Positions 1 through 13,323 of a stretch of DNA of 26,989 nt are shown piece by piece (positions within the stretch are counted from its first letter, which is position 1; every line of letters starts with the position of its first letter). The DNA is from a virus: UHGV virus genome UHGV-0205323; one strand, written 5' to 3'. A model generated the notes under the pieces. It was not told the origin of the DNA. It worked only from the letters and a program-made list of their open reading frames with translations, and searched no databases. A program made the position numbers and the translations under genes.

Positions 1-113
1 ATCGAGCAGAGTCCATAAAGGCTCATAAATGCTCTTCCATCCCCGTCTAATTGGCGGGGAAGGAAACCACTTTGTAATAAAAAAATTCCAAAGTTGTTTC
101 ATCGGAGGTCAAC

Positions 114-413
114 ATGACAGTAGTCATTACATATCTGGCTGACGATAACGCCAGAAATCGCCGCAGAGCACGCAGACAGGCTCAACGTGAACAGGCAATG
201 CAAGAGCAGCGACTGGCGCGAAAGATTGCGCTAAAGCTCTCTGGTTGCGTCAGAGCAGATAAAGCAGCATCACTCGGAAGCCTTCGCTGCAAGAAGGCAG
301 AAGAAGTCGAGCGTAAACAGAACCGTATTTACTACCGCAAGCCACGCAGTGAAATGGGTGTGACCTGTGTTGGTCGCCAGAAAATGAAATTAGGCAGCAA
401 ACCACTTATTTGA
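114..413 (+). CDS. hypothetical basic Arg-rich protein (99 aa)
   Basis: Complete ORF with GGAGG Shine-Dalgarno 6 nt upstream of ATG at 114; stop TGA 411-413 abuts the next ORF; no recognisable domain. Confidence 0.45.
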   Translation: MTVVITYLADDNARNRRRARRQAQREQAMQEQRLARKIALKLSGCVRADKAASLGSLRCKKAEEVERKQNRIYYRKPRSEMGVTCVGRQKMKLGSKPLI

Positions 414-424
414 GAGGAATTAAT

Positions 425-1048
425 ATGTCATCAATCCGCTTAACTACGAGAATGAAAGAGGAAATCGCTCGTAACGCTTTAATTAAGTCTGGGGTTTTCA
501 CTGAACTTGAAGAAGTAACAAAGTTAAAGAACCAGCTTGCACTTGACGCCAGAGTTATTGCGTTTGGCGGTAAAAAGAAAACTGAGGAAGTGGATCGGTT
601 ATCATCCAAGTTAGCAGCTATAAGTGAAGAACTTGAGAAGATGGGATGTTCATTTTACTCATGCGATGTTCGTTCTGCTTCGATTTATCTGACTGTATCT
701 GGAAGAAGGGTTGGCTGGCATTCATACGGAAAAGACGGCAACGGTGAAGATATATTGCTCCCCACCCCAGAAAAAGATAAATGCATGTTTGACGCAGAAC
801 ACGAAATAACAAAAAGGTTTGATGAAATCTGCGCATTGCAACAAAAACTTGAAGCCAAGAAAAAGGATATCGAATCAAATGTATGGGCTGCTTTGAACTC
901 AGTCACAACAGTTAAGCGACTTATTGAAGTTTGGCCTGAAAGCAAAGAATTGCTACCAAAAGAAGCAGATAAAGCAAGTACAGCACTTCCTGCTTTACGG
1001 GTAGAAGATTTGAATAAGATGATTGGACTTCCTTCCGAGGCCGCATAG
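425..1048 (+). CDS. hypothetical early protein (207 aa from ATG 425; six-frame track starts at TTG 410)
   Basis: Long ORF in early operon orientation; GAGAGG RBS upstream of ATG 425; followed by a hairpin plus T-run; no domain recognised. Confidence 0.5.
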   Translation: MSSIRLTTRMKEEIARNALIKSGVFTELEEVTKLKNQLALDARVIAFGGKKKTEEVDRLSSKLAAISEELEKMGCSFYSCDVRSASIYLTVSGRRVGWHSYGKDGNGEDILLPTPEKDKCMFDAEHEITKRFDEICALQQKLEAKKKDIESNVWAALNSVTTVKRLIEVWPESKELLPKEADKASTALPALRVEDLNKMIGLPSEAA

Positions 1049-1063
1049 TCGGCCTTTATTTTT
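1038..1063 (+). terminator. putative rho-independent terminator overlapping stop codon of 425..1048 ORF
   Basis: AGGCCG(1038-1043) / CGGCCT(1050-1055) stem with 6-nt loop, followed by TTATTTTT. Confidence 0.5.
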
Positions 1064-1221
1064 GGCATAAACAACAGAATAAACACTGAACTGTGTATTC
1101 ATTCCAACGAGTGAATACACGGAGCAATGTCGCTCGTAACTAAACAGGAGCCGACTTGTTCTGATTATTGGAAATCTTCTTTGCCCTCCTGTGTGAGGGC
1201 AATTTTTTTGATGGAGGAATT

Positions 1222-1638
1222 ATGGAAATTACAGATATTCTGGTTAATCCAGATAATTACGACCAATTCAATATCTCTACTCAATCAGTTGATTTGGGTT
1301 GTGCAAGTGTCAGCGCATGGCTACTTAATGGTAAACAGTTGGATAAATGCCTTGATGCACATATGACGGTTAACAGCTTCCTTGCAGAAAAAACACACTG
1401 GCAAGATGCTGGAGGGAAATATGCTGGATGGCTTGAAAGCATGGGATTTGAATATCAATCTGATGAAGGTTGGTGGAGCCTTATAGCTGTAACGCCTGAG
1501 ACAATAGAATGCTTCGTTAAATACTCAAACGACGATGACTATAAACACCAGGTGGATTCTGCGATAGAAAGATATAAAAGAAAATCATTCAGCCACGAAA
1601 TATCATCAGTTCTTGATTTCATAGAAGTCTTCAAATAA
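1222..1638 (+). CDS. hypothetical acidic, Trp-rich early protein (138 aa)
   Basis: Strong GGAGG RBS 6 nt upstream of ATG 1222, inside the longer 1168..1638 track ORF; net acidic composition; no domain recognised. Confidence 0.5.
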   Translation: MEITDILVNPDNYDQFNISTQSVDLGCASVSAWLLNGKQLDKCLDAHMTVNSFLAEKTHWQDAGGKYAGWLESMGFEYQSDEGWWSLIAVTPETIECFVKYSNDDDYKHQVDSAIERYKRKSFSHEISSVLDFIEVFK

Positions 1639-1670
1639 GCCGCCTAAGCGCGGCTTTACCGCATACTAAT

Positions 1671-1696
1671 AACGCTTCACTCGAGGCGTTTTCGTT
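1671..1696 (+). terminator. possible weak terminator/attenuator hairpin
   Basis: AACGCTTC / GAGGCGTT stem (one G-U pair) with 4-nt loop followed by TTCGTT; lies between 1222..1638 ORF and the small-ORF cluster. Confidence 0.35.
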
Positions 1697-1722
1697 ATGC
1701 AATCAAACAGAAGGAGTTACCC

Positions 1723-1857
1723 ATGATGCACTTTCAGCTCGCGGGTAGCGGCGTCATGTCCGCTTTCTACCCGCACGAATCTGAATTATCACGCCGAGTT
1801 AAACAATTAATCAGAGCAGCAAAGAAACAACTGGAGGCGTTATGCGCAATGAAATAG
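1723..1857 (+). CDS. small ORF (44 aa), hypothetical
   Basis: AAGGAG RBS 6 nt upstream of ATG 1723; below the 60-aa cut-off of the ORF track; translated by hand. Confidence 0.35.
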   Translation: MMHFQLAGSGVMSAFYPHESELSRRVKQLIRAAKKQLEALCAMK

Positions 1858-1994
1858 CCATCAATCACCAGATACTTCGTGCTGCACAAAACAAAGCAGT
1901 AATAGCCAGATTTATTGGTGATTCAAAAATGTGGCTTGAAGCAAATAAAGCGATGAAATCAGCTATCAACCTTCCGTGGTATCGCAGGAAATGA
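1842..1994 (+). CDS. small ORF (50 aa), hypothetical
   Basis: GGAGG RBS upstream of ATG 1842; overlaps the end of the preceding small ORF; translated by hand. Confidence 0.35.
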   Translation: MRNEIAINHQILRAAQNKAVIARFIGDSKMWLEANKAMKSAINLPWYRRK

Positions 1995-2148
1995 GTTTTA
2001 CAGATAACTGGTCAGACGAAGAATTCATTCGTCAGATGAAAGAATTAATCGGTAACGAAGGAGATATTCATGTCACTTGCAACCACGGTGAAGGAGAGCA
2101 AGTTACAGAGACGCATGTACACGCAGAAAGCTCTCTGGTATCGCCATA
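1990..2148 (+). CDS. small ORF (52 aa), hypothetical acidic protein
   Basis: ATG 1990 overlaps the TGA stop of the preceding small ORF (ATGA coupling); translated by hand. Confidence 0.35.
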
Positions 2149-2248
2149 ATGGCGACCGCGAAGGAATGCGGGTATGCCTTAATTTGTCCAGAGTCGAAGT
2201 ATTAAACCAGCGTTATTTCCTTGGGCCGTGTCCATTCTGAGGTGAATT

Positions 2249-2956
2249 ATGGATTTGAACAAATTCGATGAGCCATTCAGCCCTGAAGATATCGAATGGC
2301 GAATACAGCAAAGCGGTAAAACACGCGATGGCAAGGTGTGGGCTATGGTGCTGGCTTATGTCACGAACAGGGCAATCATGAAACGCCTGGACGATGTTTG
2401 CGGCAAAGCAGGATGGCGCAATGAATACCGCGATATTCCCAACAACGGAGGCGTTGAATGCGGCATATCAATCAGGATTGATTCCGAATGGGTAACCAAA
2501 TGGGATGCTGCTGAAAACACGCAGGTAGAAGCCGTCAAAGGTGGTCGTTCAGGTGCAATGAAGCGTGCTGCCGTTCAGTGGGGAATCGGTCGGTATCTGT
2601 ATAACCTTGAGGAAGGTTTCGCACAAACATCTCTCGATAAAAAGCAGGGATGGCACAGGGCAAAACTCAAGGATGGAACAGGATTTTACTGGCTCCCTCC
2701 ATCGCTGCCGGGATGGGCAATCCCAGCATCAAATAACAAACCATCACCAGAAAATACCAACCAGAAATCTCCATCGGTTGACTGCGAGCAAATCCTGAAA
2801 GACTTCAGCGATTATGCGTCAACAGAAACTGACAAGAAAAAACTCATCGAGCGTTATCAGCGTGACTGGCAATTAATGGCTGGCAACGAGGAGGCGCAGG
2901 CTAAATGCGTTCAGGTAATGAACATCAGAGTTAACGAACTAAAACAGGCGGCATAA
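2249..2956 (+). CDS. Rad52-like single-strand annealing protein (recombinase)
   Basis: 235-aa ORF; N-terminal half has a Rad52/22-family-like pattern (GAMKRAAVQWGIGRYLY region); GAGGTGA RBS; immediately upstream of ssb. Confidence 0.7.
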   Translation: MDLNKFDEPFSPEDIEWRIQQSGKTRDGKVWAMVLAYVTNRAIMKRLDDVCGKAGWRNEYRDIPNNGGVECGISIRIDSEWVTKWDAAENTQVEAVKGGRSGAMKRAAVQWGIGRYLYNLEEGFAQTSLDKKQGWHRAKLKDGTGFYWLPPSLPGWAIPASNNKPSPENTNQKSPSVDCEQILKDFSDYASTETDKKKLIERYQRDWQLMAGNEEAQAKCVQVMNIRVNELKQAA

Positions 2957-3472
2957 ATGGCAAGCAGAGGCGTAAATAAGGTGATCATTATTGGTCGCCT
3001 TGGTCACGATCCAGAAATCAGATATTCACCATCAGGAACGGCATTTGCAAACCTTACCGTTGCTACGTCAGAACAATGGCGTGATAAGCAAACTGGAGAG
3101 CAAAAGGAGCAGACGGAGTGGCACCGTGTGGTAATGAGCGGGAAACTGGCAGAAATTGCCAGCGAATATCTGCGAAAAGGCTCTGAGGTTTATCTTGAAG
3201 GCAAATTGCGGACAAGAAAATGGCAGGATCAAAGCGGACAGGATCGGTTCACTACCGAAGTCATCGTGGGCGTTGGTGGAACCATGCAAATGCTTGGTGG
3301 CAAGCAAGGAGGCAATGAACAGTCCTCACCTCAGCGAAATAACGGTCAGCAACAAAGACAGCAACCTCAGCAGCAAGGGAATCACAGCGAACCACCTATG
3401 GATTTTGACGACGATATCCCCTTTGCACCAGTAACTCTCCCCTTCCCTCGTCACGCTATTCACGCAATTTAA
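2957..3472 (+). CDS. ssb: single-stranded DNA-binding protein
   Basis: Canonical SSB N-terminal OB-fold sequence ([16 protein letters not shown]...TEWHRVV), Gly/Gln-rich linker and acidic DDDIPF tail; start overlaps stop of upstream gene. Confidence 0.9.
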
Positions 3473-3480
3473 GGACTTAC

Positions 3481-4029
3481 ATGAATCACTTAATGGTTGA
3501 CCTTGAAACAATGGGCAATGGGCCATACGCGCCAGTTATTTCTATTGGGGCGGTATTCTTTGACCCGAATACCGGAGAAACAGGAGAAGAGTTCTCGGTA
3601 AATATCTCGCTTGAGTCATCAATGCGATATCGGGCGCGTCCTGACGCTTCAACGATTTTATGGTGGCTGGAACAGAGTGAAGAAGCCAGAAAATCGCTAA
3701 CCAGCAACACTCAGGAGCTTTCAACGGCTCTTTCATGGTTATCTGAATTCATCATAAAGAACGCTAACCACAAATTCGTTCAGGTTTGGGGGAATGGAGC
3801 ATCATTTGACTGCGTTATTCTCCGAAACAGTTATTCGCTGACAGGGCAGCCAGTTCCATGGCAGTGGTGGAATGACCGCGACGTAAGAACAATCGTCGAG
3901 CTTGGAAAGGTAATAGGATTCGAACCTAAGCGAGATATGCCATTCAAAGGAACTCGCCACAACGCTCTTGATGATGCCATTCACCAAGCCAAATACGTTT
4001 CAGCGATCTGGAAAAAGTTAGCTAAATAA
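3481..4029 (+). CDS. DEDDh-type 3'-5' exonuclease (DnaQ-like)
   Basis: Exo I motif MVDLETMG, Exo II WGNGASFD, Exo III HNALDDAIHQAKY in the correct order and spacing. Confidence 0.75.
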   Translation: MNHLMVDLETMGNGPYAPVISIGAVFFDPNTGETGEEFSVNISLESSMRYRARPDASTILWWLEQSEEARKSLTSNTQELSTALSWLSEFIIKNANHKFVQVWGNGASFDCVILRNSYSLTGQPVPWQWWNDRDVRTIVELGKVIGFEPKRDMPFKGTRHNALDDAIHQAKYVSAIWKKLAK

Positions 4030-4045
4030 TCAACAGGAGAAAACC

Positions 4046-4342
4046 ATGCCAGCGCCTCTGTATAGTGCGGATGACCCGCGCCGCTGTTCCGGCAATTCCG
4101 TATCGGAGGTGCTGGATAAATTCAGGAAAAACTACGACCGGATAATGTCGCTACCGCAGGAAACGAAAGAGGAAAAGGAATTTCGCCACTGTATATGGCT
4201 TGCAGAGAAAGAAGAACGCGAGCGAATTTACCAGACATCAATCCGACCATTCCGCAAAGCCACATATACCCACTTCCCTGAATATATCGACCCGCGCCTG
4301 CGTAATTACCGCTCACGCTATGGCGCTATCAGTAATGACTGA
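4046..4342 (+). CDS. hypothetical protein (98 aa)
   Basis: ORF with AGGAGA RBS upstream of ATG 4046; no domain recognised. Confidence 0.5.
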
Positions 4343-4514
4343 GGAATTTACCATGAGAGGACTTGCATACAATCCCGGCATTCTTCCGGCAGAAATGATT
4401 ATTCGCCAACGCGTAAAGCCAATGCCATCGAGAGATGGAATTGCTTAAGAGAAATTCTTTTCCGTCAGTGAATCAAAACAAATATCTGAATGCGATGTGG
4501 CGGAGTGGGAAAAA

Positions 4515-4868
4515 ATGAAACAAATGTCACTAATTGAGATGGATGGATTTCTGAAAGGTAAATGCATACCACGAGATTTAAAGGTTAACGAAACAAACGC
4601 TGAATATCTGGTGCGTAAATTCGATGAAGTACGTGCTGAGGCTCGCAACGAGGGTATTAACTATACCGCAAGCCGTCTTGCTGCTGCGTTCAATCACGGA
4701 TTTATCAATAAGTCTTTACGTGAAGTTTTCGACGTTACGCGCATGATTCTGTCAGCGAAAGAAGAGTTGGCTAATGAACCGCATCCGATTGATGGCCTGT
4801 CCGGTGAATATGCAGAGAAATCCCTTGAAGAATGGGCGGAACGGCTTCGCAAAGGAGGCAGCCAGTGA
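4515..4868 (+). CDS. hypothetical protein (117 aa from ATG 4515; track ORF starts at 4497)
   Basis: GGAG RBS upstream of ATG 4515; stop TGA overlaps the GTG start of the downstream methyltransferase ORF (GTGA). Confidence 0.5.
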   Translation: MKQMSLIEMDGFLKGKCIPRDLKVNETNAEYLVRKFDEVRAEARNEGINYTASRLAAAFNHGFINKSLREVFDVTRMILSAKEELANEPHPIDGLSGEYAEKSLEEWAERLRKGGSQ

Positions 4869-5350
4869 CTGGACATGCAGCAATCCTCGACATGTGCTGT
4901 GGCAGTCGCATGTTCTGGTTCGATAAGAATGACGACCGGGCGATATTTAGTGATATCAGAAAGGAAGAGCACACATTGTGTGATGGACGACGCCTGATTA
5001 TCAGTCCTGACCTGATAGCTGATTTTCGTGCACTACCATTTGCAGACGCATCCTTTTCGATGGTTGTATTCGACCCTCCGCATCTTGAGCGTGTTGGTGA
5101 TAACGCTTGGATGGGAAAGAAATATGGACGGCTGAATAAAGATACCTGGCGTGATGATTTACGGCAGGGATTCAAAGAAGCCTTTCGTGTGTTGTGGCCA
5201 TACGGCGTTCTGATTTTTAAATGGAATGAAACGCAAATACCTGTTCGCCAGATATTGGCACTGACCGACAGAAAGCCTGTTATCGGTCAACGAACAGGAA
5301 AGGGTGACAAGACCCACTGGATTATTTTTATGAAGGAGGGCAACCAGTGA
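4865..5350 (+). CDS. putative SAM-dependent DNA methyltransferase (orphan, small)
   Basis: Motif I-like DMCCGSR followed about 65 residues later by DPPH (motif IV-like, as DPPY/F/W in amino-methyltransferases); likely GTG start at 4865 overlapping the upstream stop; no adjacent restriction endonuclease candidate. Confidence 0.55.
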   Translation: MTGHAAILDMCCGSRMFWFDKNDDRAIFSDIRKEEHTLCDGRRLIISPDLIADFRALPFADASFSMVVFDPPHLERVGDNAWMGKKYGRLNKDTWRDDLRQGFKEAFRVLWPYGVLIFKWNETQIPVRQILALTDRKPVIGQRTGKGDKTHWIIFMKEGNQ

Positions 5351-6096
5351 GCGAGATTGATTATCAGGCACTGCGTGAGGTGGCGGAACGTGCAATTCCA
5401 GCAATGGAACGCCTGTTAATGTTGCCAGCTGATGATGACTTGTTAAGTGAACAGGAACTTAAAGATTACGGTGTGGATATTGATGCGCTCAACGCCTTCA
5501 AATTTCTGACCGGACCAGAAACCGTGCTGGCACTGCTGGATGAACGGGAAAGAAACCTGCAATACATCAAAAGCCGCGATCAGGAGAACGAGGATATTGC
5601 GCTAACGGTAGGGAAGCTGAGAGTTGAGCTTGAGGAAGTAAAACAACACGCTGAAGAATTATCCGAAACCAAGGCTGTTCGTAACCAATGGCGGCCAGAT
5701 ATTTGCCCAATAACCGGACGTGCATTTTTCATGTGGATTGAGCATCCAACATTGGGAAATGTGCCGACATATGGTGGCCCATTAGATAGTTACACCATTC
5801 CAACAAAGGACGGTGACGGTGAGTTTTCATGTGAGCGTTACGATCATGATTTTGGCGGTTGGGTAGAAAGCGAATGTCTTGGGTTATATCTGATTGATGA
5901 TAGAGAACAATGCAGGGTCTACGAACTGGAGGAACGCGTTAAGGAACTGGATGCTCGGGAAATATCGCTCCCAGAACGTAGCAGCATGCTTCATCGAACA
6001 GATTTTCACGATGATTACCAAACGGTAATGGCATACAAAGTTTCTGAAGTCATCGCTGCAATCCGCGCCGCTGGCATTCGCATCAAAGGAGAGTGA
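5347..6096 (+). CDS. Ead/Ea22-like prophage early protein (hypothetical)
   Basis: 249-aa ORF with coiled-coil-like N-terminus resembling proteins commonly annotated Ead/Ea22-like in enterobacterial prophages; GTG start overlapping upstream TGA; AGGAGG RBS. Confidence 0.5.
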   Translation: MSEIDYQALREVAERAIPAMERLLMLPADDDLLSEQELKDYGVDIDALNAFKFLTGPETVLALLDERERNLQYIKSRDQENEDIALTVGKLRVELEEVKQHAEELSETKAVRNQWRPDICPITGRAFFMWIEHPTLGNVPTYGGPLDSYTIPTKDGDGEFSCERYDHDFGGWVESECLGLYLIDDREQCRVYELEERVKELDAREISLPERSSMLHRTDFHDDYQTVMAYKVSEVIAAIRAAGIRIKGE

Positions 6097-6097
6097 T

Positions 6098-6604
6098 ATG
6101 AGCACTATCACTAAAGAACGTATCGAATTGTTCATTAAATCCCCGCTTGAAAACGGGCTTACCCGTGGTGAACAAATGGAACTGGCACGGATTGCGCTGG
6201 CATCGCTGGAAGCAGAGCCGGTGGCGTGGAAGGTAACCTTCACGCAAATTGACCGTGAATATAACACGTTCACTGGTATGTATTCTGACAAAGCAGAAGT
6301 CGAACGGTGGGTGCGGCTGCATAAAGCATGTAATTTTCGGGCAGATATAACACCGCTTTATACCGCCAAGCCAGTTCCGGTAACTCCGGATGGTTGGATA
6401 AGCTGTAGTGATCGAATGCCGGATACCAAAACAGCCGTTCTTGTTGCCGTGGAGTTTGACAGGAAAGGTGACTGGCGAATGAAATGGGCGACTTACATCC
6501 CGGGGCATCCTGACGCTAATGATGGGTGGATAATTCCTGGTGCGTCGTGGAAACCGTCACACTGGATGCCGCTACCGGAACCGCCGGAGCAGGATGGTGA
6601 ATGA
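6098..6604 (+). CDS. DUF551-domain protein
   Basis: C-terminal region with the typical DUF551 pattern (DGWISCSDRMPD...VLVAV...HWMPLPEPP); GGAGAG RBS. Confidence 0.65.
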   Translation: MSTITKERIELFIKSPLENGLTRGEQMELARIALASLEAEPVAWKVTFTQIDREYNTFTGMYSDKAEVERWVRLHKACNFRADITPLYTAKPVPVTPDGWISCSDRMPDTKTAVLVAVEFDRKGDWRMKWATYIPGHPDANDGWIIPGASWKPSHWMPLPEPPEQDGE

Positions 6605-6690
6605 TGCCGCCAGTTAAAGTTGTGATTATCACTTTGGTGATAATAGTGATTGCGAGAATCATGTCTGGTGAAATTGGGTGGATATGGTAA
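6601..6690 (+). CDS. small hydrophobic peptide (29 aa), possible membrane peptide
   Basis: ATG overlaps the TGA of the DUF551 gene; sequence MMPPVKVVIITLVIIVIARIMSGEIGWIW is a single hydrophobic helix; not in ORF track because under 60 aa. Confidence 0.3.
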   Translation: MMPPVKVVIITLVIIVIARIMSGEIGWIW

Positions 6691-6752
6691 TGACCAGGGA
6701 AGCAGCAGATAGCAACCAACAATCCTCGCACTCGCGGGGATTTCTTTTATCT

Positions 6753-6780
6753 GAACTCGCTACGGCGAGTTTTGTTTTAT
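6753..6780 (+). terminator. putative rho-independent terminator
   Basis: AACTCGC / GCGAGTT stem with TACG loop followed by TTGTTTTAT. Confidence 0.5.
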
Positions 6781-6791
6781 GGAGATGATAA

Positions 6792-6959
6792 ATGCACTTC
6801 CGAGTTACAGGTGAATGGAATGGAGAACCATTCAACAGAGTTATCGAAGCCGAGAACATCAGCGACTGCTATGACCACTGGATGCTGTGGGCGCAGATAG
6901 CACATGCAGACGTAACCAATATTCGAATTGAAGAACTGAAAGAACACCAAGCCGCCTGA
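6792..6959 (+). CDS. small ORF (55 aa), hypothetical
   Basis: GGAGATGA RBS upstream of ATG 6792; flanked by terminator-like hairpins on both sides; translated by hand (MHFRVTGEWNGEPF...). Confidence 0.4.
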   Translation: MHFRVTGEWNGEPFNRVIEAENISDCYDHWMLWAQIAHADVTNIRIEELKEHQAA

Positions 6960-6973
6960 TGGCGGTTTTTTAT
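6951..6973 (+). terminator. putative rho-independent terminator overlapping stop of the 55-aa ORF
   Basis: GCCGCC / GGCGG(T) stem with TGAT loop followed by TTTTTTAT. Confidence 0.55.
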
Positions 6974-7016
6974 TGCCTGATTTGCAGGTTCGATTCCCTA
7001 TTCGGAGATAGCACTC

Positions 7017-7217
7017 ATGCAACACGAACTACAGCCTGATTCACTGGTTGATTTGAAATTCATCATGGCCGATACTGGCTTCGGTAAAACCTTCATCTAC
7101 GACCGGATTAAGTCCGGCGACCTGCCAAAAGCCAAAGTTATCCACGGGCGAGCAAGATGGTTATATCGTGACCATTGTGAATTCAAAAATAAGCTCTTAA
7201 GCCGCGCCAATGGGTAA
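7017..7217 (+). CDS. xis: excisionase-like DNA-binding protein (HTH_17/AlpA-type)
   Basis: 66-aa ORF immediately upstream of the integrase; pattern ...DRIKSGDLPKAKVIHGRARWLYRD... resembles the excisionase/AlpA winged-helix family. Confidence 0.6.
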   Translation: MQHELQPDSLVDLKFIMADTGFGKTFIYDRIKSGDLPKAKVIHGRARWLYRDHCEFKNKLLSRANG

Positions 7218-7466
7218 AATAGCGGGTAAAATATTTTTCACATCTAAAAAACACCATTCTAATCAATCCCCTGCTGCGTCAAGTAGATGTCTGCAGGGGA
7301 CACCATTTATCAGTTCGCTCCCATCCGTACCAGTCCGCAAAATCCCCTGAATATCAAGCCTTCCGTAGATTCACAGTTCGTAATGGTTCGCGTCAGATCG
7401 TTGACAGCCGCACACCATGACGGGTAAAAAGTGGATAAAATAATTTTACCCACCGGATTTTTACCC
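7212..7466. repeat. cluster of GGGTAAAAW 9-mers in both orientations spanning the xis stop to the int start; candidate Int/Xis binding sites or attP arm sites
   Basis: GGGTAAAAT at 7212-7220 and 7224-7232; GGGTAAAAA 7422-7430; GGATAAAAT 7433-7441; inverted ATTTTACCC 7443-7451 and TTTTTACCC 7458-7466; an 8-bp inverted repeat TCCCCTGC/GCAGGGGA at 7267-7274 and 7293-7300 lies between the two groups. Confidence 0.55.
7401..7430 (+). promoter_or_regulatory. candidate int promoter overlapped by the GGGTAAAAW repeats
   Basis: Consensus -35 TTGACA at 7401-7406; weak -10 TAAAAA at 7425-7430 (18-bp spacer); no experimental support. Confidence 0.3.
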
Positions 7467-8624
7467 ATGCTCACTGTTAAGCAGATTGAAGCAGCAAAGC
7501 CGAAAGAAAAACCATACCGCCTTCTCGATGGTAATGGCCTGTACCTTTATGTCCCTGTATCAGGGAAAAAGGTATGGCAGCTTCGCTACAAGATTGACGG
7601 TAAGGAGAAAATCCTGACCGTCGGAAAATATCCGCTTATGACTTTGCAGGAGGCAAGGGATAAGGCATGGACTGCGAGGAAAGACATCTCGGCTGGCATC
7701 GATCCGGTAAAGGCGAAAAAGGCTTCGTCTAACAACAATTCCTTTTGTGCGATTTACAAGGAATGGTACGAGCACAAGAAGCAAGTCTGGTCAGTAGGCT
7801 ATGCAACTGAACTTGCCAAAATGTTTGATGACGACATTTTACCCATCATCGGCGGTCTTGAGATTCAGGATATTGAGCCGATGCAACTGTTGGAAGTAAT
7901 CCGCAGATTTGAAGATCGCGGTGCAATGGAGCGAGCCAACAAAGCACGCAGAAGATGCGGCGAGGTTTTCCGTTACGCTATTGTCACCGGAAGGGCTAAA
8001 TATAACCCGGCACCTGACCTTGCTGACGCCATGAAGGGATACCGCAAGAAGAACTTCCCGTTTCTTCCTGCAGACCAGATCCCGGCATTCAACAAAGCAC
8101 TGGCAACATTTTCAGGAAGTATCGTATCGCTCATTGCGACCAAAGTTTTACGCTACACAGCCCTAAGAACGAAAGAGCTTCGTTCCATGCAATGGAAGAA
8201 CGTCGATTTTGAAAACAGGATTATCACTATCGACGCCAGTGTGATGAAGGGACGCAAAATTCATGTGGTTCCGATGTCGGGCCAGGTAGTTGAACTTCTC
8301 ACTACGCTAAGCTCCATCACTAAACCAGTATCAGAGTTTGTTTTTGCCGGGCGCAACGATAAGAAGAAGCCAATCTGCGAGAACGCGGTATTGCTTGTGA
8401 TCAAACAAATCGGCTATGAGGGTCTGGAAAGCGGTCACGGATTCAGGCATGAATTCAGCACAATTATGAACGAGCACGAATGGCCTGCTGATGCTATTGA
8501 AGTGCAACTGGCACATGCCAACGGCGGATCTGTACGCGGGATTTACAACCATGCTCAGTATCTGGATAAGCGCAGAGAAATGATGCAGTGGTGGGCGGAT
8601 TGGCTTGATGAAAAGGTGGAGTGA
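7467..8624 (+). CDS. int: tyrosine integrase, P4-type (DUF4102 N-terminal domain)
   Basis: N-terminus MLTVKQIEAAKPKEKPYRLLDGNGLYLYV...WQLRY typical of P4/CP4-57-like integrases; C-terminal catalytic region with HGFRH and conserved R/H/Y context; start placed at ATG 7467 rather than the track's 7431. Confidence 0.85.
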   Translation: MLTVKQIEAAKPKEKPYRLLDGNGLYLYVPVSGKKVWQLRYKIDGKEKILTVGKYPLMTLQEARDKAWTARKDISAGIDPVKAKKASSNNNSFCAIYKEWYEHKKQVWSVGYATELAKMFDDDILPIIGGLEIQDIEPMQLLEVIRRFEDRGAMERANKARRRCGEVFRYAIVTGRAKYNPAPDLADAMKGYRKKNFPFLPADQIPAFNKALATFSGSIVSLIATKVLRYTALRTKELRSMQWKNVDFENRIITIDASVMKGRKIHVVPMSGQVVELLTTLSSITKPVSEFVFAGRNDKKKPICENAVLLVIKQIGYEGLESGHGFRHEFSTIMNEHEWPADAIEVQLAHANGGSVRGIYNHAQYLDKRREMMQWWADWLDEKVE

Positions 8625-8643
8625 TCCACCTTGACTATCGAAT

Positions 8644-8700
8644 GGCACAAAGCCTTGCAATCCAGTGCAAAGCTTTGTGTGCCTCAGTTTTGTCTCATTA
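8644..8700 (+). terminator. putative terminator / structured element downstream of int
   Basis: Long imperfect hairpin GGCACAAAGCCTTGCA / TGCAAAGCTTTGTGTGCC followed by T-rich TCAGTTTTGTCTCATT; a separate perfect 8-bp hairpin AAGGTGGA-GTGA-TCCACCTT (8613-8632) spans the int stop codon. Confidence 0.45.
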
Positions 8701-8751
8701 TTAAAATAATTCCGTCAACCTCACTACCTTCATAATATTGAATTTTTTTAA

Positions 8752-10413
8752 TTACCTCCATGCAACAATTGTAACTGGTATAGTTACTGACTGACTTGTA
8801 ACTATAAGTCCTGTTGTTGTATCAACAATTCTTATTGCAAACCCGGTAGAATTATAAGTGTCGGCGTATACTTGATATTTAAAAGGAGATGGTACTGCAC
8901 CTGAATGAAAATCAGGATGTATAATTACTTTTGAGGCATAAAAACCAATTGTAACTATACCTCCCGGATTAACTGTTGTTGTCGATATATAATCCGGCGA
9001 GTTGTGTATCTTATCGTTAACCCTTATTATCTTACCATTTCCAATCATGCTAAATATAGTAAATACACCATTTGGGTCATTAAGATAAACTGTTGCATTA
9101 TCTTCTACTCTTATATGACCTGCTGTTCCGTCATCATTAAGCAAGACAGGGTTGTTAATGTAAGTTACTGAATTTCCTCGACATCTAAAATGATAAAAAT
9201 TAGGTCCGTTTGGATTAACTCTATTGAAGTGTGGATTGTTATATGTGACTACTGAAGATGATGCTACCAGTATTGATTGTGTTCCTGCTGTCATTTTTCC
9301 ATCTGTAGAATCCATCTCAAAATTTGGTGAGTCGAAAACAACCCCGGTAGAGTTTGTATCAATATGATGGAAGTAAGAGTTATAAGACCCATCATGCCCC
9401 ATATTAAAATTAATCCACTTAGACCCCTTTACACCACGAAGTCTTAGTGCAAATGCTTTGAAGTTTGCCGCATAACAGTTTATATATGTATTTTCAATTA
9501 TCTGGCCGTTACTCGAAATATCAAAACCAATTCTATTCCCATTTGCTCTGATGTTTGTAAACACATTGGAGAAGTCAGCAGGACCAGCTTTATAACCAAC
9601 ATCAAAGTAGTCTAAATACATATTAGAGAAAGTGCAGTTTACTGTCTTATTTACTCCGGTAAGATCAAGACCAGAACCAGATCCAATTGGTTGACCTCCG
9701 CTAACGGCACCCTCAACAATTAAACCTATATTTGCTATTACTGTTCCTCTTAATTCATTTCCAGATGCAGATATTCCTGAAATCCCGCTAGGTGTTTTTA
9801 TGCTTGATGTAGATAGAGAATCACCAATTAATCCAAAATTATTCTTAAGTGAAATGTTACCTTCCCATTCCCCTGGAGGAACCTTAAGGGTAATGGGAAT
9901 GCTACCAGATGCTATATAATCATTTACCGGGGAAAGATCATTACCGATAACACCAAATCCTCTTATATCTCCTAATCTTCTATAATCAGTAATAGAAATA
10001 AAATCCTGAACGGACTCCCCAGTATCGTAACAAACTAAAGATGCTCCAATATTAGACGCAAGCCTTTTTTCAAGCTGATCCGGGTCGTACTTCAGTACAT
10101 TCGGAAAATAAAACTGCTGCGCACCGTACGCATCATAAACAGCCATAGAATGGCCTTGCACGGTAACGAATTTGGCAATCTGTCCGTTATATACAGGGTA
10201 ACCAGCAGCGTTAATGATGATTGGCTGGGATACAGGAACGTGAGAGCCGTCTTCGTTCTCCACATAAACCTGAATCTGGTTTTCAGGATTTACCGGGTCA
10301 GTGTCAATTTTACCGATATAAATTTTGCCATTGGCTACGGCTTTAAAAGAACGAGCCATAGTGAAGAGTTGCGAAGGCATCGATACGATCACATTGGCTG
10401 TAATGTCTGTCAT
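8752..10413 (-). CDS. tailspike protein: P22 gp9-like N-terminal head-binding domain fused to a divergent receptor-binding domain
   Basis: N-terminal ~110 aa ([11 protein letters not shown]...[22 protein letters not shown]...[13 protein letters not shown]...VLKYDPDQ) closely matches the P22 tailspike head-binding domain as recalled; the remainder is Gly/Asn/Ser/Thr-rich and unlike P22; last gene before the int-proximal end. Confidence 0.85.
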
Positions 10414-10471
10414 TTAATTTGCTCCAGATACAAGGAATCGCCGCAGCATGGCTACGGTGAATTTTGGGCAT

Positions 10472-10496
10472 AAAAAAACCCAGCCGAAGCTGGGTC
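10472..10496 (-). terminator. rho-independent terminator between ant and tailspike (minus strand)
   Basis: Minus-strand stem ACCCAGC / GCTGGGT with TTCG loop followed by TTTTTTTAT. Confidence 0.6.
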
Positions 10497-10513
10497 GTTG
10501 CGTTTGTTATCTG

Positions 10514-11404
10514 TCAGTAGTTATGTACTGAAGGAGGTAATTCTTTATTCTTAAGTCTCATCCATGCGGAAAGATTCGCTGGTCCGTCTGGCTCATTAAT
10601 ATCAACATCTCGTGTGTGGTTTATTAAAACGTCTCTCGCCATTCCGATAACATACGAGAACTCATGACCGTAGTCGTAGCATCTTCCGGAATAGTTCGAT
10701 TGAATTTGTTTTAACGCCGGATACAGTTCGCGGAATAATGCCTGTGAACGGTTGGCATAATCCCATAACCATACAAGACTGTTTGCTTCTTTTGCAGAAA
10801 GCTCGTTGGTCTTCTTCTCTTGTTTGCCGATAAACTCGCCTTCAAGCACTACCCTGTGGATGTACTCTACGGCCAGCGGGATTTGTTCAATTGAAAGTTC
10901 ATCAATGCTGTCAATACCAAAACGCTGATGAACCATATTGTATGCATCGTCATAGCGAAGTCCTTTCTTTCCTACCAGCATGTTTACTGCATCGCGTAGC
11001 GGTGTGCGTTCAGCTACTGAAGTTTTACCGCCAATAGCCTTCCTCTCTTGTGTGGTAGTAACCATTGCGTCATATGCACGGATAACCTTCAGCGCAAAGG
11101 CTGCGCTAATCCACATGGCGTAGGAGTAAACAAGCTCCTTGCACACGTAGGTTCCACCATATCTACCTTTCTTAGAAAGGACGGGATTCTTATTCTGCAT
11201 ATCCGCAGAATTAAAAATTTCATTAATCAATTCAATAGTTTCATTTCTACGCATGAAGAAAGCTGGCTGATGTTTTTCCTCCTTTCCAGACGCTACATGA
11301 AGGTCATTAAGCGAGTAACGACCCTCTGAATCCATATGAATCTTGACGTCAGAAATGATGATGCTATTAGTGCAATTTACAGTTGACTTTGCTAAGCTTG
11401 ACAT
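10514..11404 (-). CDS. ant: antirepressor Ant with KilA-N-type N-terminal domain
   Basis: 296-aa ORF downstream of arc on the same strand; N-terminal KilA-N-like pattern ([36 protein letters not shown]); position matches the P22 immI arc-ant arrangement. Confidence 0.65.
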
Positions 11405-11470
11405 ATCAATAATACCTCGTAAGTTTTGTTGATACCGAAGCCCTGACTGTTACAGCAGTTGGGGCTTCAA
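11377..11470 (+). ncRNA. candidate sar-like antisense RNA opposite the arc-ant junction and ant RBS
   Basis: Plus-strand terminator hairpin GAAGCCC...GGGCTTC followed by AACTTTTT (11434-11470) antisense to arc/ant; candidate promoter -35 TTGACG 11343-11348 with -10 TATTAG 11365-11370 inside the ant 5' end; 5' end uncertain. Confidence 0.3.
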
Positions 11471-11640
11471 CTTTTTGCTAGATTACCTTTAGAACTATCC
11501 CGCCTTAAACTATCCACTAACCGCATTACCATCTCGGTATTTATTGAGCGACCATTTTCTTTCGCTGACTTCTCGATTGCTAACTTAACCTCTAATGGGA
11601 TGCGCAAAGGGTACTTTGGTGCGTCTGACTTGACTATCAT
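11467..11640 (-). CDS. arc: Arc-like ribbon-helix-helix repressor
   Basis: 57-aa protein from ATG 11640 with GGAGGT RBS; PKYPLRIPLEVKLAIEKSAKENGRSINTEMVMRLVDSL parallels P22 Arc (PQFNLRWPREVLDLVRKVAEENGRSVNSEIYQRVMESF, recalled). Confidence 0.7.
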   Translation of the reverse strand: MIVKSDAPKYPLRIPLEVKLAIEKSAKENGRSINTEMVMRLVDSLRRDSSKGNLAKS

Positions 11641-11658
11641 ATTACCTCCAATCAACTT

Positions 11659-11675
11659 GGTATAACCGTTATACC
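11659..11675. promoter_or_regulatory. perfect 17-bp palindrome, candidate Mnt-type operator overlapping the ant/arc promoter
   Basis: GGTATAAC-C-GTTATACC is an exact inverted repeat around a central base, located between divergent arc and mnt and about 20 bp upstream of the arc RBS. Confidence 0.5.
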
Positions 11676-11676
11676 A

Positions 11677-11704
11677 TTGTGATCGCAGTGATGCAATAGT
11701 AATA
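11677..11704 (+). promoter_or_regulatory. candidate Pmnt promoter
   Basis: -35 TTGTGA at 11677-11682; -10 TAATAT at 11699-11704 (16-bp spacer); upstream of mnt RBS GGAGGTGG. Confidence 0.3.
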
Positions 11705-11728
11705 TCACCAAAATGCTATGGAGGTGGT

Positions 11729-11965
11729 ATGTCACGCGAAGAGCCGCAAATAAATATCAGGATTTCCAAAGAGTTAAAGGCAAAGGTTAAAGCCAGGGCG
11801 CAACATAACAAGCGTTCCATGAATGCTGAAATAATACAGATTATCGAAGATGCTGTTTGTGGTAGATCGCTTAATAGCAATGAATTTGCTCAGAAAGAGG
11901 CTGACAAATTCAGGGATGCGCTACTTGAAACACTGAAAACCATGTATGGTAAGGATGAAAAATAA
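11729..11965 (+). CDS. mnt: Mnt-like ribbon-helix-helix repressor
   Basis: N-terminus MSREEPQINIRISKELKAKVKARAQHNKRSMNAEIIQIIEDAV parallels P22 Mnt (ARDDPHFNFRMPMEVREKLKFRAEANGRSMNSELLQIV, recalled); divergent from arc-ant. Confidence 0.75.
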   Translation: MSREEPQINIRISKELKAKVKARAQHNKRSMNAEIIQIIEDAVCGRSLNSNEFAQKEADKFRDALLETLKTMYGKDEK

Positions 11966-12501
11966 TGCTGCACACAATTCATTTCTTATGCCCCGTTAAC
12001 ACTGCCACTGTTGGGCAACTTCAGAACCACTGTCTCACCGCATTATCTCAAGGCGCAACTGAATTAAATATCCATATATCAAGTCAGGGAGGGGAAACTG
12101 CCGCTGGTTTTACTGCGTATAACTTTCTTAAGTCACTCCCTGTTACCGTTAGAACTCACAACATAAGCAATGTTGAATCCATAGCTAATATCGTTTTCCT
12201 GGCTGGCTCAGAACGTTTCGCAAACCCATTATCAAGATTCCTGTTACATCCTCTATTATGGGGCTTTGCCACCCCAGCCGCCGACCATGCCAGATTGAGA
12301 GAGTACGGGAAATGCCTCGATAACGATCTTGATCGCTTCGTTGAGACGTTCAATATCGACATCGGAACCCATATTAGGTGGGCATCCCTGATAGCAGACT
12401 CGACCATTTTGGATGCTAACAAGGCTCTTGAGCATGGCATAATTAATTCCATAAAAACTGCAAGGCTGGTATCCAATCAGGCAAACTGGTGGGTTGTTTG
12501 A
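11965..12501 (+). CDS. ClpP-fold serine peptidase-like protein, translationally coupled to mnt
   Basis: ATG overlaps the mnt stop (TAATG); sequence aligns by eye to the E. coli ClpP core (IHISSQGGETAAGFTAYNFL vs [20 protein letters not shown]; Ser in SNVESIANI at the GQAASMGA position; His in FLLHPL at the MIHQP position; C-terminal LEHGIINSI vs VEYGLVDSI). Confidence 0.6.
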   Translation: MLHTIHFLCPVNTATVGQLQNHCLTALSQGATELNIHISSQGGETAAGFTAYNFLKSLPVTVRTHNISNVESIANIVFLAGSERFANPLSRFLLHPLLWGFATPAADHARLREYGKCLDNDLDRFVETFNIDIGTHIRWASLIADSTILDANKALEHGIINSIKTARLVSNQANWWVV

Positions 12502-12578
12502 TGGGTAAATCATGATTACTCCTATGGCAGGAAAGATTCGCATCCTTAAATTTAGTGAGCAAGGATTACCATCACACC

Positions 12579-12764
12579 TTAACAGCCTCCGCGTCCACGA
12601 GTAATTCTATTGCGGATTTGCTTCTTGCGGTGGTTTAAGCTGGAGAGCCTGGCTTCTGCTTCTGATATTTGCGCATCAAGATCTTTAAGCTCAAGATCTG
12701 AAAGTCGCTGGTCAAGCAGGGTTTGGTTCAACTCAATGTTGTTCAGGCGTTCTTCTATGGTCAT
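12579..12764 (-). CDS. small coiled-coil protein (61 aa), hypothetical
   Basis: AAGGAG RBS 5 nt upstream of ATG 12764; heptad-like Leu-rich sequence; start lies immediately downstream of the lipoprotein-gene terminator. Confidence 0.45.
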   Translation of the reverse strand: MTIEERLNNIELNQTLLDQRLSDLELKDLDAQISEAEARLSSLNHRKKQIRNRITRGRGGC

Positions 12765-12772
12765 GATTACTC

Positions 12773-12802
12773 CTTATAAAAAACCCACCTGACGGTGGGT
12801 TT
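12773..12802 (-). terminator. rho-independent terminator downstream of the lipoprotein gene (minus strand)
   Basis: Perfect 9-bp stem AAACCCACC / GGTGGGTTT with 4-nt loop, followed on the minus strand by TTTTTTAT. Confidence 0.6.
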
Positions 12803-12808
12803 CATTTC

Positions 12809-13240
12809 TTAATCTTGCTTTGTAGACGGTATAAGGGATGCGTTTGCCTCTTTTGGCTTCAAGGTATACATCCCACCATTAAATGGATCAACAGCAAGCC
12901 AACCAATTAACCCACCAAACACAAGGTTTCCACCAATATACCAACCATTAGCATTGGCTTTGATTGGCAGGGTAACTGGTTCGTACCCATCCTTCTCCAT
13001 AGTGATCTGGTAGCTCTTTTTGCCAAAATAACTACCATCTGACTTGGCAAGAGTTACTCCTTGCGGGGTCTTACCTTGCGCAACAATCACGCCTGATTCG
13101 TCTTTTACCTTAAAGCTCGCACCGGAAGGATTGCTGTTCACTTGCACAAGCTGTGTTTCGTCACCAACAATAGTTGCGCACCCAGATAACATGATAGCGC
13201 CAGCAACGACGCTAATAATCCTCTTCATATCAATTTCCAT
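12809..13240 (-). CDS. lipoprotein (signal peptide with lipobox LSGC); candidate superinfection-exclusion or surface-modifying moron
   Basis: N-terminus MKRIISVVAGAIMLSG-C has a type II signal peptide and lipobox; Gly-rich C-terminal segment WYIGGNLVFGGLIGWLAVDPFNGGMY; followed by its own terminator; alternative start ATG 13228. Confidence 0.6.
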   Translation of the reverse strand: MEIDMKRIISVVAGAIMLSGCATIVGDETQLVQVNSNPSGASFKVKDESGVIVAQGKTPQGVTLAKSDGSYFGKKSYQITMEKDGYEPVTLPIKANANGWYIGGNLVFGGLIGWLAVDPFNGGMYTLKPKEANASLIPSTKQD

Positions 13241-13323
13241 ATCTAAAAAACCGGAAACATCCTAATGACAAACCATTCAAATGTGAAGCACGAGATAAGA
13301 TCAATCCATCCGTGGACGACTAA

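Follow-up and report, generated by a model that had tools for sequence, protein, structure and literature searches.

What stands between a DUF551-domain gene and the excisionase gene of the phage genome UHGV-0205323, and does it govern the expression of what follows? An earlier note had described a hydrophobic 29-aa peptide here and, behind it, a 55-aa open reading frame (ORF) bracketed by terminators, and had read this arrangement as an insulated small gene or a device controlling read-through into xis and int. We analysed this locus within the window, that is, the whole 26,989-nucleotide stretch of DNA, and every feature so described is present where it had been placed. Positions 6098-6973 and their flanks are probably the promoter-distal end of the early leftward (pL) operon of a P22-like lambdoid phage; this judgement is one on the explanation as a whole, including the orf55 module, its gating and the peptide. 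Every gene from the N-like antiterminator gene through xis lies on the + strand, and the region is assembled from interchangeable gene cassettes.

Table 1. Features of the locus and its surroundings, with coordinates in the window
Feature	Position	Strand	Sequence or basis
N-like antiterminator gene	114-413	+	
DUF551-domain gene	6098-6604	+	Pfam PF04448, E 2.8e-21; ORF list
29-codon hydrophobic ORF	6601-6690	+	MMPPVKVVIITLVIIVIARIMSGEIGWIW
5′-end remnant of a 112-aa gene (MAKAAAERK...)	6690-6716	+	First codons only, then t3 junction
Predicted terminator t3 (hairpin 1 and T-run)	6721-6752	+	AATCCTCGC-ACTC-GCGGGGATT TCTTTTATCT
Predicted terminator t4 (hairpin 2 and T-run)	6753-6782	+	GAACTCGC-TACG-GCGAGTTT TGTTTTATGG
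orf55 Shine-Dalgarno sequence, GGAG	6781-6784	+	7 nt before ATG; within TTTTAT(T)GGAGA junction
orf55 homologue, 55 aa	6792-6959	+	phrog_676, lambda match, dN/dS, AlphaFold2
Predicted terminator t5 (hairpin 3 and T-run)	6949-6976	+	AAGCCGCC-TGAT-GGCGGTTT TTTATTGC
16-nt copy of argW tRNA positions 46-61	6982-6997	+	TTGCAGGTTCGATTCC; left edge of TorI-type xis module
Excisionase (recombination directionality factor, RDF)	7017-7217	+	100% identical to TorI (WP_001163428.1); phrog_66; PMC3509656
attP core (argW 3′ end)	7291-7305	+	CTGCAGGGGACACCA; then intS promoter region
IntS-type integrase	7467-8624	+	attP lies between xis and int

The main object is mostly ordinary and has been described before. 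Judged by sequence identity, positions 6718-6976 are almost certainly the orf55 module of phage lambda, whose parts would be, in order, t3, t4, a Shine-Dalgarno sequence, orf55 and t5; the interval 6718-6985 is ~95% identical to lambda 29091-29359, which lies between ea8.5 and xis. In lambda as here, two hairpins precede the ribosome-binding site, the 55-aa protein is followed by a hairpin that holds the stop codon in its loop, and the gene (lambdap34; PMC4195576 and PMC8614690) is the last accessory gene ahead of the excisionase. The surroundings differ: upstream, lambda has ea8.5 in place of the DUF551 gene and 29-aa ORF, and downstream, xis-int-attP in place of a TorI-type excisionase, attP and then int. 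The module is found in 2175 of 5426 complete Escherichia coli genomes (~40%). The idea of an insulated small gene thus holds to the extent that orf55 is conserved and bracketed by terminator-like hairpins, but the arrangement is no special device of this phage, because it is the lambda module with its t3, t4 and t5 and is so widely carried.

The 55-aa ORF, with its own ribosome-binding site as had been claimed, is a real protein-coding gene under purifying selection. It matches phrog_676 over its full length (E 5.5e-40, with residues 1-55 aligned to profile positions 1-55), a type of protein with 98 related clusters that are mostly 55 aa long; Pfam, NCBIfam and PADLOC hold no family for it. 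Its nucleotide sequence is ~95% identical to lambda 29118-29285 and its protein differs from that of lambda at two residues only (S24N and L32I), with dN/dS values of 0.096 against lambda, 0.25 against E212 and 0.13 against Klebsiella homologues, relative to which synonymous sites are saturated. A search of IMG/VR for related loci returned near-identical copies only, and the divergent copies were taken from contigs that encode homologous proteins. The position of the gene, as in the rest of the lambda orf55 family, is that of the last accessory gene before the excisionase: here xis begins 58 nt past the orf55 stop, and orf55 lies directly upstream of an excisionase, from four unrelated families, in 69 of 80 IMG/VR loci. 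Three divergent loci likewise have it upstream of an excisionase-type gene, and lambda has it before xis.

The AlphaFold2 model of orf55 (pLDDT 90.5) predicts a small acidic β-β-α-β protein, a fold that it would share with Gp2, by which T7 inhibits the RNA polymerase of its host; in a Foldseek comparison of the model with the PDB, Gp2 ranks first (4lk0_M, E 0.04, TM ~0.6). This likeness was proposed by Donaldson 2021 (PMC8614690), together with a speculative docking model in which orf55 binds the β′ jaw of RNA polymerase. At the sequence level no homology to Gp2 was detected: a profile search against the whole PDB at E ≤ 10 does not list it.

A small accessory gene in a discrete cassette with a terminator of its own calls to mind the morons of lambdoid phages, a concept of Hendrix and Juhala, which are insertions consisting of a promoter, a gene and a terminator. 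Like a moron, orf55 would have its own terminator (t5) and sits between conserved junctions, and its presence or absence is discrete, with loci in which t4 runs straight into the next gene through an identical GGAGA junction. Unlike a moron, it has no promoter-like site between t4 and the gene (none occurs on the + strand between 6690 and 6792) and has two predicted terminators in front, so autonomous expression in the lysogen would not be expected. For want of its own promoter, we rejected the identification of orf55 as a moron.

The three hairpins have the geometry of intrinsic terminators, with a GC-rich stem-loop followed by a T-run on the transcribed strand. Specifically, the hairpin proper of t3 (6721-6742) has 9 pairs, a 4-nt loop and a dG of -13.1 kcal/mol; that of t4 (6753-6772) has 8 pairs, a 4-nt loop and -11.9 kcal/mol; and that of t5 (6949-6968) has 8 pairs, a 4-nt loop and -13.0 kcal/mol, with TTTTTTATTG behind it. 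The single hairpin and T-run that had been placed between the two ORFs is therefore present but consists of two elements, and the second terminator-like element, behind the 55-aa ORF, was described correctly. Identical hairpin sequences stand in Table 4 of Bloch et al. 2014 (PMC4195576) as t3, t4 and t5 of lambda, where they are terminators predicted in silico. In a 3-kb scan, 7 terminator-like sites were observed versus 2.9 ± 2.1 in shuffled sequences, and the three strongest on the + strand were t3, t4 and t5, which are also the only strong + strand candidates within 1690-7217. Each of the three lies between genes or at the end of one, on the strand that is transcribed, and folding z-scores are -2.5 and -2.0. 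A scan of 6000-7600 with Rfam at E ≤ 10 identified no known RNA family; it gave only sub-threshold matches due to the terminator hairpins, including STnc130 (25 bits against 55), rimP, Leu_leader and isrK.

Comparison with related phages separates t5 from the other two. The stop codon of orf55 (TGA, 6957-6959) is in the t5 loop, and this layout is retained in homologues of ~73% amino acid identity, in which silent sites are saturated; it is clear in two of them (L097, from Klebsiella, and L098), and in a third (L099) the layout is present and the stem degraded. The t3/t4 pair is missing upstream of the divergent Klebsiella-type orf55 genes and hence is not essential to orf55. It also stands before other genes, for example a 114-aa gene in other phages, and occurs in 260 phage records, versus 168 for orf55; t3 and t4 thus appear to be a separate linker that is not specific to orf55.

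Variation within the t3/t4 pair bears on what is being maintained. In some loci the t3 position is held by a non-homologous hairpin, AACCCGC-CGAGT-GCGGGTT, with the same T-run, which argues for selection acting on structure and not on sequence homology; 24 loci carry a restructured variant, ATCCTCG-CACTGA-CGAGGAT. The commonest t4 variant is an A to G change that keeps the pairing as U-G, and some singleton variants disrupt one stem pair. A covariation count over 21 distinct t3/t4 sequences gave 95% paired cells versus 94.6% in shuffles, with one double change only and a score that shuffles reached 20-117 times in 500, but this count is uninformative because the copies are ~92% identical. The junction TTTTAT(T)GGAGA recurs after both t4 and t5 and also precedes the 114-aa gene of other phages. 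Phages without orf55 have another terminator hairpin directly before xis, and HK022 has five hairpins within 700 nt.

Two readings of these hairpins were weighed. Most likely, they are intrinsic terminators that only N-antiterminated pL transcripts are predicted to pass. An unlikely alternative role is that of RNA 3′-end stabilisers, processing signals or recombination linkers with little effect on transcription. That they lie exactly at mosaic boundaries, with identical flanks at different junctions, and that t3/t4 are found independently of orf55, would both fit such a role, and an N-modified polymerase would ignore the hairpins during the sole period in which pL is active. However, their geometry is canonical for terminators, and T-runs occur solely on the strand that is transcribed; t3 can be replaced by a non-homologous hairpin that keeps the T-run; and stems of 8-9 bp are too short for RNase III. 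We therefore favour termination, and the hairpins with their T-run and GGAGA flanks probably serve in addition as conserved seams for the swapping of cassettes between phages.

On this basis, we consider it reasonably probable that t3, t4 and t5 gate the end of the operon by termination and antitermination, their function being predicted. The three hairpins would stop ordinary RNA polymerase, and only polymerase modified at pL by the N-like antiterminator would read through t3-t5; since nothing else would pass, orf55 and the excisionase gene downstream would be expressed solely in lytic development or induction, and in the lysogen stray transcription would not get to the excisionase. There is a well-characterised parallel in lambda, where the pL terminators tL1, tL2 and tL3, mapped biochemically, are overridden by N antitermination. 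Like these, t3-t5 are intrinsic terminators, here by prediction, that lie beyond an N-like gene on the transcribed strand of an early leftward operon, and in both cases distal genes such as xis would be made only from antiterminated transcripts; the lambda sites differ in being further upstream and in having been mapped biochemically, whereas t3-t5 are known as predictions.

How far would such a gate extend? Control of read-through into xis is reasonable, because the hairpins bracket a conserved gene directly upstream of the excisionase gene, but the extension to int that had been proposed falls away, since attP lies between xis and int and the integrase gene is therefore outside the hairpin-gated unit. 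Read-through in the prophage cannot get to int, and int of the KplE1/HK620/Sf6 type has its own autoregulated promoter, as PMC2951348 states for intS. The locus indeed has the recombination module of the KplE1/HK620 type: a TorI-type RDF, an argW-derived att core between RDF and int, and an int promoter overlapping att. It resembles the IntS-TorI-argW module of KplE1, HK620 and Sf6 (PMC2951348 and PMC3509656) in its TorI (100% identical) and in the argW 3′ end as attP core; att also separates the RDF from int, and 7291-7521, where the int promoter region lies, shares 97% identity with the argW 3′ end and intS 5′ region of K-12. The 16-nt argW fragment to the left of xis matches K-12 argW at 16 of 16 positions, always accompanies TorI-type xis and is labelled 'attR core' in the CUS-3 record. 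Expression of torI by itself triggers excision, according to PMC2951348. In a module of this type the excisionase would be the sole trigger of excision, because integrase would be made constitutively at a low level. The available portions of Panis et al. (PMC2951348 and PMC3509656) contain no discussion of a terminator before torI or of the 16-nt argW fragment.

The remaining part of the locus, the 29-codon ORF, is the weakest part of the explanation. Its ATG overlaps the TGA of the DUF551 gene (ATGA), and an AGGA motif lies 6 nt upstream (6591-6594); since a TGA stands right ahead of the ATG in the frame of the peptide, we rejected a frameshift fusion of the two. The six frames of the window contain 272 ORFs of 20-45 aa, of which this one has the highest 17-residue hydropathy. 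The claim of a hydrophobic peptide coupled to DUF551 is borne out in its stop-codon overlap and strong hydrophobicity, and the single-helix membrane reading rests on composition and gene packing only. Copies of the ORF are carried by 222 of the 5426 E. coli genomes and appear in 10 phage records; they are restricted to prophages of E. coli and Shigella and at least 90% identical; the Stx2c prophages of O157:H7 carry it, the Stx2c-phage copy being MMPPVKVVIITLVMIVIARIMSGEIVWIW. In genomes carrying copies, PGAP annotation of the ORF was never seen; the peptide string did not occur in the literature searched, and Pfam, PHROGs, NCBIfam and PADLOC hold no matching family. A tblastn search of phages returned 10 near-identical copies and no diverged homologue, a degenerate back-translated pattern found 41 loci in IMG/VR that are all the same element, and an exact 27-mer had no match in one-genome-per-species contigs.

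The ORF appears, from comparison of sequences, to fill a variable gene slot between the DUF551 gene and t3. In two loci (L105 and L140) it is followed by a full-length 112-aa gene that starts at a TAATG overlap with its stop; in most loci this gene is reduced to ATGGCTAAGGCAGCAGCAGAGCGCAA and then a stop. Elsewhere only 11 codons of an ASCH gene, otherwise deleted, are left in the slot, and in lambda, HK022, Louie and most other phages 86-94 aa genes occupy it and t3/t4 stand without the ORF.

Is it a gene? We give this an even chance, and most likely it is a candidate translated accessory micro-gene encoding a single-pass membrane peptide; its status is unproven because divergent homologues were not found and purifying selection is not clear. 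It is only somewhat less plausible that it is not a gene but non-functional filler, or debris of recombination or deletion in the variable slot, its hydrophobicity a matter of chance (second codon positions are T-rich and there is an internal GTGAT(T/A)AT repeat), carried along with the conserved linker next to it. The near-identity of the copies, the want of diverged homologues and of any family match, and the gene remnants both in the slot elsewhere and in the 27 nt behind the ORF would all fit debris, as would ~8 non-synonymous versus 5 synonymous change types, a ratio not clearly distinct from neutrality. Of 34 distinct IMG/VR variants, 8 have ATA in place of the first ATG and one has lost its start. 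However, the ORF is intact in nearly all of these variants and its frame is open in essentially every copy, across more than 1000 contigs; whenever the first ATG is lost, a second ATG or a GTG backs it up, one variant excepted. In addition, its variation per site is about half that of the 27-nt spacer behind it, and it ranks first in hydropathy and overlaps its neighbours' start and stop codons as packed phage genes do (its stop with the next start, TAATG, in other phages). In one locus (L009) the upstream junction is another one, yet a new in-frame ATG overlaps the upstream stop.

Two more specific functions can largely be set aside. In size, composition and short polar tail the peptide resembles single-helix membrane peptides, such as the type I toxins Ibs, ShoB and Hok and the small membrane proteins found by ribosome profiling, although it is homologous to none of these. 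That it is itself such a toxin under the control of an antisense RNA is very improbable: it is short and very hydrophobic, its start presumably resembles Ibs peptides, and a sigma-70-like site lies within it on the opposite strand (6667 to 6640, 9/12 matches), but promoter-like sites are not enriched (2 observed versus 3.9 expected), no antisense terminator, Rfam match or promoter of its own was found, and it lies inside an operon, coupled to its neighbours. We rejected this candidate for lack of antisense evidence. Barely plausible is a leader peptide whose translation controls termination at t3/t4 by attenuation and so the expression of orf55 and xis. The layout of short ORF, 30-nt gap, tandem terminators and gene invites this idea, as does weak similarity to Leu_leader and rimP (E 2.7-9.4), but these Rfam matches are far under gathering scores, no alternative anti-terminator pairing is predicted, and the minimum free energy fold retains both hairpins and has an outer helix that is not conserved in variants. 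The existence of the hairpins without the ORF in lambda, HK022, Louie and most other phages largely refutes attenuation.

Two further possibilities are ones that we consider doubtful. The 29-codon ORF may be translated into a single-pass membrane peptide that has so far gone unrecognised in lambdoid and Stx2c prophages, and which might, for example, mediate exclusion or modulate a membrane protein of the host. Translation of orf55 may block t5: because the stop codon is inside the t5 loop, a ribosome finishing orf55 could keep the hairpin from folding, and excisionase expression would then depend on both orf55 translation and N antitermination.

These results leave current concepts unchanged, and their value is mainly one of annotation: the 55-aa ORF should be labelled a homologue of lambda orf55. 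The module itself is already known, and the unannotated 29-codon ORF is a cheap candidate for small-protein validation. The predicted terminators t3-t5 precede the excision trigger in very many E. coli prophages, Stx phages included. As the excisionase alone would decide excision in KplE1-type modules, gating by these hairpins, if true, would explain part of the stability of such prophages.

The 55-aa ORF and its flanking hairpins can be recognized, by sequence, as the orf55 module of phage lambda. Window positions 6718-6985 are ~95% identical to lambda J02459 29091-29359, a match that covers the entire ea8.5-xis interval, and the 55-aa protein matches phrog_676 from end to end (E 5.5e-40); Pfam, NCBIfam and PADLOC yielded no family matching the protein, and Rfam no applicable family for the region. 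In lambda, exactly these three hairpins are t3, t4 and t5, terminators predicted by ARNold (Bloch et al. 2014, PMC4195576, Table 4), and the ORF is named orf55, the final gene of the exo-xis region (Donaldson 2021, PMC8614690). The DUF551 gene, the 29-codon ORF, the 55-aa ORF with its RBS and the hairpins all lie where the earlier note had placed them, and the insulated small gene that it proposed is lambda's orf55, with hairpins on both sides. The observation is confirmed; its interpretation is partly right.

Features of the window around the orf55 module
Feature	Position	Strand	Remarks
N-like antiterminator gene	114-413	+	first gene in window
DUF551 gene	6098-6604	+	Pfam PF04448, E 2.8e-21
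29-codon hydrophobic ORF	6601-6690	+	MMPPVKVVIITLVIIVIARIMSGEIGWIW
truncated 5' end of 112-aa gene	6690-6716	+	MAKAAAERKAAQRARQ...; intact in IMG/VR loci L105, L140
hairpin t3 + T-run	6721-6742	+	-13.1 kcal/mol
hairpin t4 + T-run	6753-6772	+	-11.9 kcal/mol
55-aa ORF (orf55)	6792-6959	+	GGAG 7 nt upstream
hairpin t5	6949-6968	+	then TTTTTTATTG; -13.0 kcal/mol; orf55 TGA in loop
xis, 66 aa	7017-7217	+	100% identical to protein PGAP names TorI
attP core	7291-7305		CTGCAGGGGACACCA; between xis and int (within 7218-7466)
tailspike gene	8752-10413	-	

After the N-like gene, the plus strand carries erf, ssb, an exonuclease, abc2, a methyltransferase, an Ea22-like gene and the DUF551 gene throughout; beyond int lies the minus-strand tailspike gene, and the nearest phages are Lederbergvirus. 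This places the orf55 region at the promoter-distal end of the pL operon in a P22-like lambdoid phage. Three more strong plus-strand terminator-like hairpins (1037-1056, 1181-1202 and 1671-1690) follow soon after the N-like gene and resemble the lambda tL1/tL2 region. A two-way terminator-like hairpin, ACCCAGCCGAAGCTGGGT, with its T-run on the minus strand, is located at 10477-10496, just upstream (in plus-strand coordinates) of the tailspike gene start.

orf55 is a real protein gene. Its dN/dS values are 0.10 against lambda, 0.25 against E212 and 0.13 against a Klebsiella homologue, silent sites being saturated in the distant comparisons. Of 5426 complete E. coli genomes, 2175 have the module (coverage at least 80%), and orf55 occurs in 168 phage records. 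The published model is a three-strand/one-helix protein akin to T7 Gp2 (PMC8614690). AlphaFold2, given a 16-sequence alignment, predicts strands at residues 2-9, 12-19 and 41-49 and a helix at 23-37 (pLDDT 90.5). T7 Gp2 ranks first when this model is compared with the PDB by Foldseek, but with E 0.04 and TM ~0.6; Gp2 is absent from a profile search of PDB sequences with orf55, and BFVD matches are mainly uncharacterised proteins at E of at least 0.01. The published idea that orf55 is an RNA polymerase inhibitor is therefore possible, though not specifically supported. The possibility that orf55 is a moron was rejected, as the plus strand from 6690 to 6792 gave no promoter-like site.

Terminator-like sites numbered 7 in the local scan versus 2.9 +/- 2.1 in shuffled sequences, and across 1-14000 the only strong plus-strand candidates from 1690 to xis are t3, t4 and t5. 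The space between the two ORFs, where a single hairpin with a T-run had been noted, contains a pair of them, and the terminator-like hairpin after the 55-aa ORF is t5. Comparison among loci indicates that t5 belongs to orf55. In two divergent loci, one from Klebsiella, with ~73% amino acid identity and saturated DNA divergence, the arrangement GCCGCC-(loop with TGA)-GGCGG followed by T-runs is retained; in a third (L099) the stem is degraded. The left arm of t5 also supplies the codons for the C-terminal Ala-Ala. The t3/t4 pair, judged by its distribution, is independent of orf55: all three divergent loci lack it, E. coli phages also have it before a 114-aa or a 99-aa gene, and it is found in 260 phage records (many of them Stx2a phages) versus 168 for orf55. 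The same TTTTAT(T)GGAGA follows t4 and again t5, and therefore orf55 plus t5 forms a precise cassette that is either present or missing where t4 meets the gene that comes next. In 24 IMG/VR loci the place of t3 is taken by a restructured hairpin, ATCCTCG-CACTGA-CGAGGAT, and in a few by a non-homologous one, AACCCGC-CGAGT-GCGGGTT, with the T-run unchanged; the latter suggests that a hairpin is selected for in itself. Because the t3/t4 copies are ~92% identical, covariation counting gives no signal either way. Phages that lack orf55 have another terminator-like hairpin directly before xis, and HK022 (L003 1537-2217) has five in the ~700 nt from an ASCH gene to xis, one per small cassette. HK022 is known for antitermination that uses put-RNA instead of N.

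The gene directly after orf55 is an excisionase in 69 of 80 IMG/VR loci (lambda Xis in 51, TorI-type in 13, another HTH type in 3 and a 71-aa hydrophobic ORF in 2) and the 114-aa gene in 9; at divergent loci orf55 precedes still other excisionase families (PF07825, DUF1233, HTH type). Over 7291-7521 the window shares 97% identity with the 3' end of the K-12 tRNA gene argW plus the promoter and 5' end of the integrase gene intS, which therefore places attP between xis and int, not beyond int. This is the arrangement of the KplE1/HK620/Sf6 module (PMC3509656), in which a negatively autoregulated promoter of its own gives int low, constitutive expression and torI expression alone triggers excision (PMC2951348). 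In modules of this type, xis and int come to lie at opposite prophage ends. Thus, of the proposed control of read-through into xis and int, the xis part is likely, but the int part fails since attP separates the two genes: read-through from the orf55 region can reach xis and, in the prophage, cannot reach int. The int ORF was called mechanically from GTG 7431; alignment with K-12 intS indicates ATG 7467 as the true start. Repeated GGGTAAAA / TTTTACCC motifs at 7224-7235 and 7417-7466, on both arms around the attP core, probably serve the IntS/TorI system as binding sites, of the integrase arm type or for the RDF.

TTGCAGGTTCGATTCC, at 6982-6997, reproduces without mismatch the 16 argW nucleotides located directly before the attP core sequence; the final 31 nt of argW thus lie in two halves on either side of the xis cassette (6998-7290). 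This 16-mer is present with every TorI-type xis seen and may have been left over from an older att core of greater length. The CUS-3 GenBank record CP000711 (L015 1-30; L016 1993-2008) is bounded by the same repeat, annotated as the attL/attR core, and therefore stops right after the orf55 terminator; the TorI-type xis and true attR seem to be missing from it.

What fills the slot from the DUF551 stop to t3 differs among phages: a 94-aa ASCH gene in HK022, an 86-aa gene in phage Louie, an 11-codon ASCH-gene remnant in certain phages and, in lambda, the end of ea8.5. Here it holds the 29-codon ORF, which is as hydrophobic as had been claimed and overlaps the DUF551 gene: its 17-residue hydropathy of 2.73 is the highest among 272 short ORFs in the window, its ATG shares bases with the DUF551 TGA, and AGGA lies 6 nt 5' of that ATG. 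We put the chance that it encodes a translated membrane micro-protein at about even. The alternative is that it is not a gene but debris, which is known to accumulate in this slot. The expected conservation across phages held for orf55 and t5, kept at ~73% amino acid identity, but copies of the 29-codon ORF are all at least 90% identical, with no diverged homologue in the collections searched; changes among distinct IMG/VR sequences comprise ~8 non-synonymous versus 5 synonymous types; and the first ATG has become ATA in eight variants (the second being kept), while one variant is without any start. Against debris, virtually none of the 34 distinct IMG/VR sequences has the frame interrupted; the ORF's stop and the start of the 112-aa gene overlap as TAATG in L105 and L140, and of that gene the spacer in the window keeps only the initial codons; and in another locus (L009), where abc2 is the upstream partner and the N-terminus is altered, a fresh ATG still overlaps the upstream stop. 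In the window, the 112-aa-gene frame continues across t3 and t4 as a spurious 36-aa ORF (6678-6788). Units of GTGAT(T/A)AT, among them the near-palindrome GTGATTATCAC, recur at 6618-6655 as Val-Ile-Ile codons; they may just as well form a motif at the DNA level.

Of 5426 E. coli genomes, 222 carry the 29-aa segment, as do 10 phage records: Stx2 phages 1717, 2851, Stx2a_F349, Stx2a_WGPS4 and Stx2a_WGPS8 (with RefSeq duplicates), E212 and EC.P3. PGAP leaves it unannotated throughout; other pipelines call it a hypothetical protein, in six recorded variants, one of which recurs on 1000 contigs or more. The ORF is unlikely to be a type I toxin, as the single weak antisense promoter-like match is not above chance and the local scan gave no antisense terminator. 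Leader-peptide attenuation was rejected: t3/t4 occur without the ORF, and there is no conserved alternative pairing. The core object, orf55 with its hairpins, is already described in lambda; the 29-codon ORF, a candidate gene, is the sole unrecorded element of the region.

We propose that t3, t4 and t5 would act as intrinsic terminators at which unmodified RNA polymerase halts and which polymerase modified at pL by the N-like protein passes. As a secondary speculation, a ribosome terminating at the orf55 stop codon, which lies in the t5 loop, would cover t5 and could lower termination, and this would couple read-through into xis to orf55 translation. The elements may also serve as seams for cassette exchange. 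The outcome of such N-dependent passage would be that orf55 and the excisionase are confined to lytic development or induction, and that the excisionase, here the sole trigger of excision, is kept from stray transcription in the lysogen.
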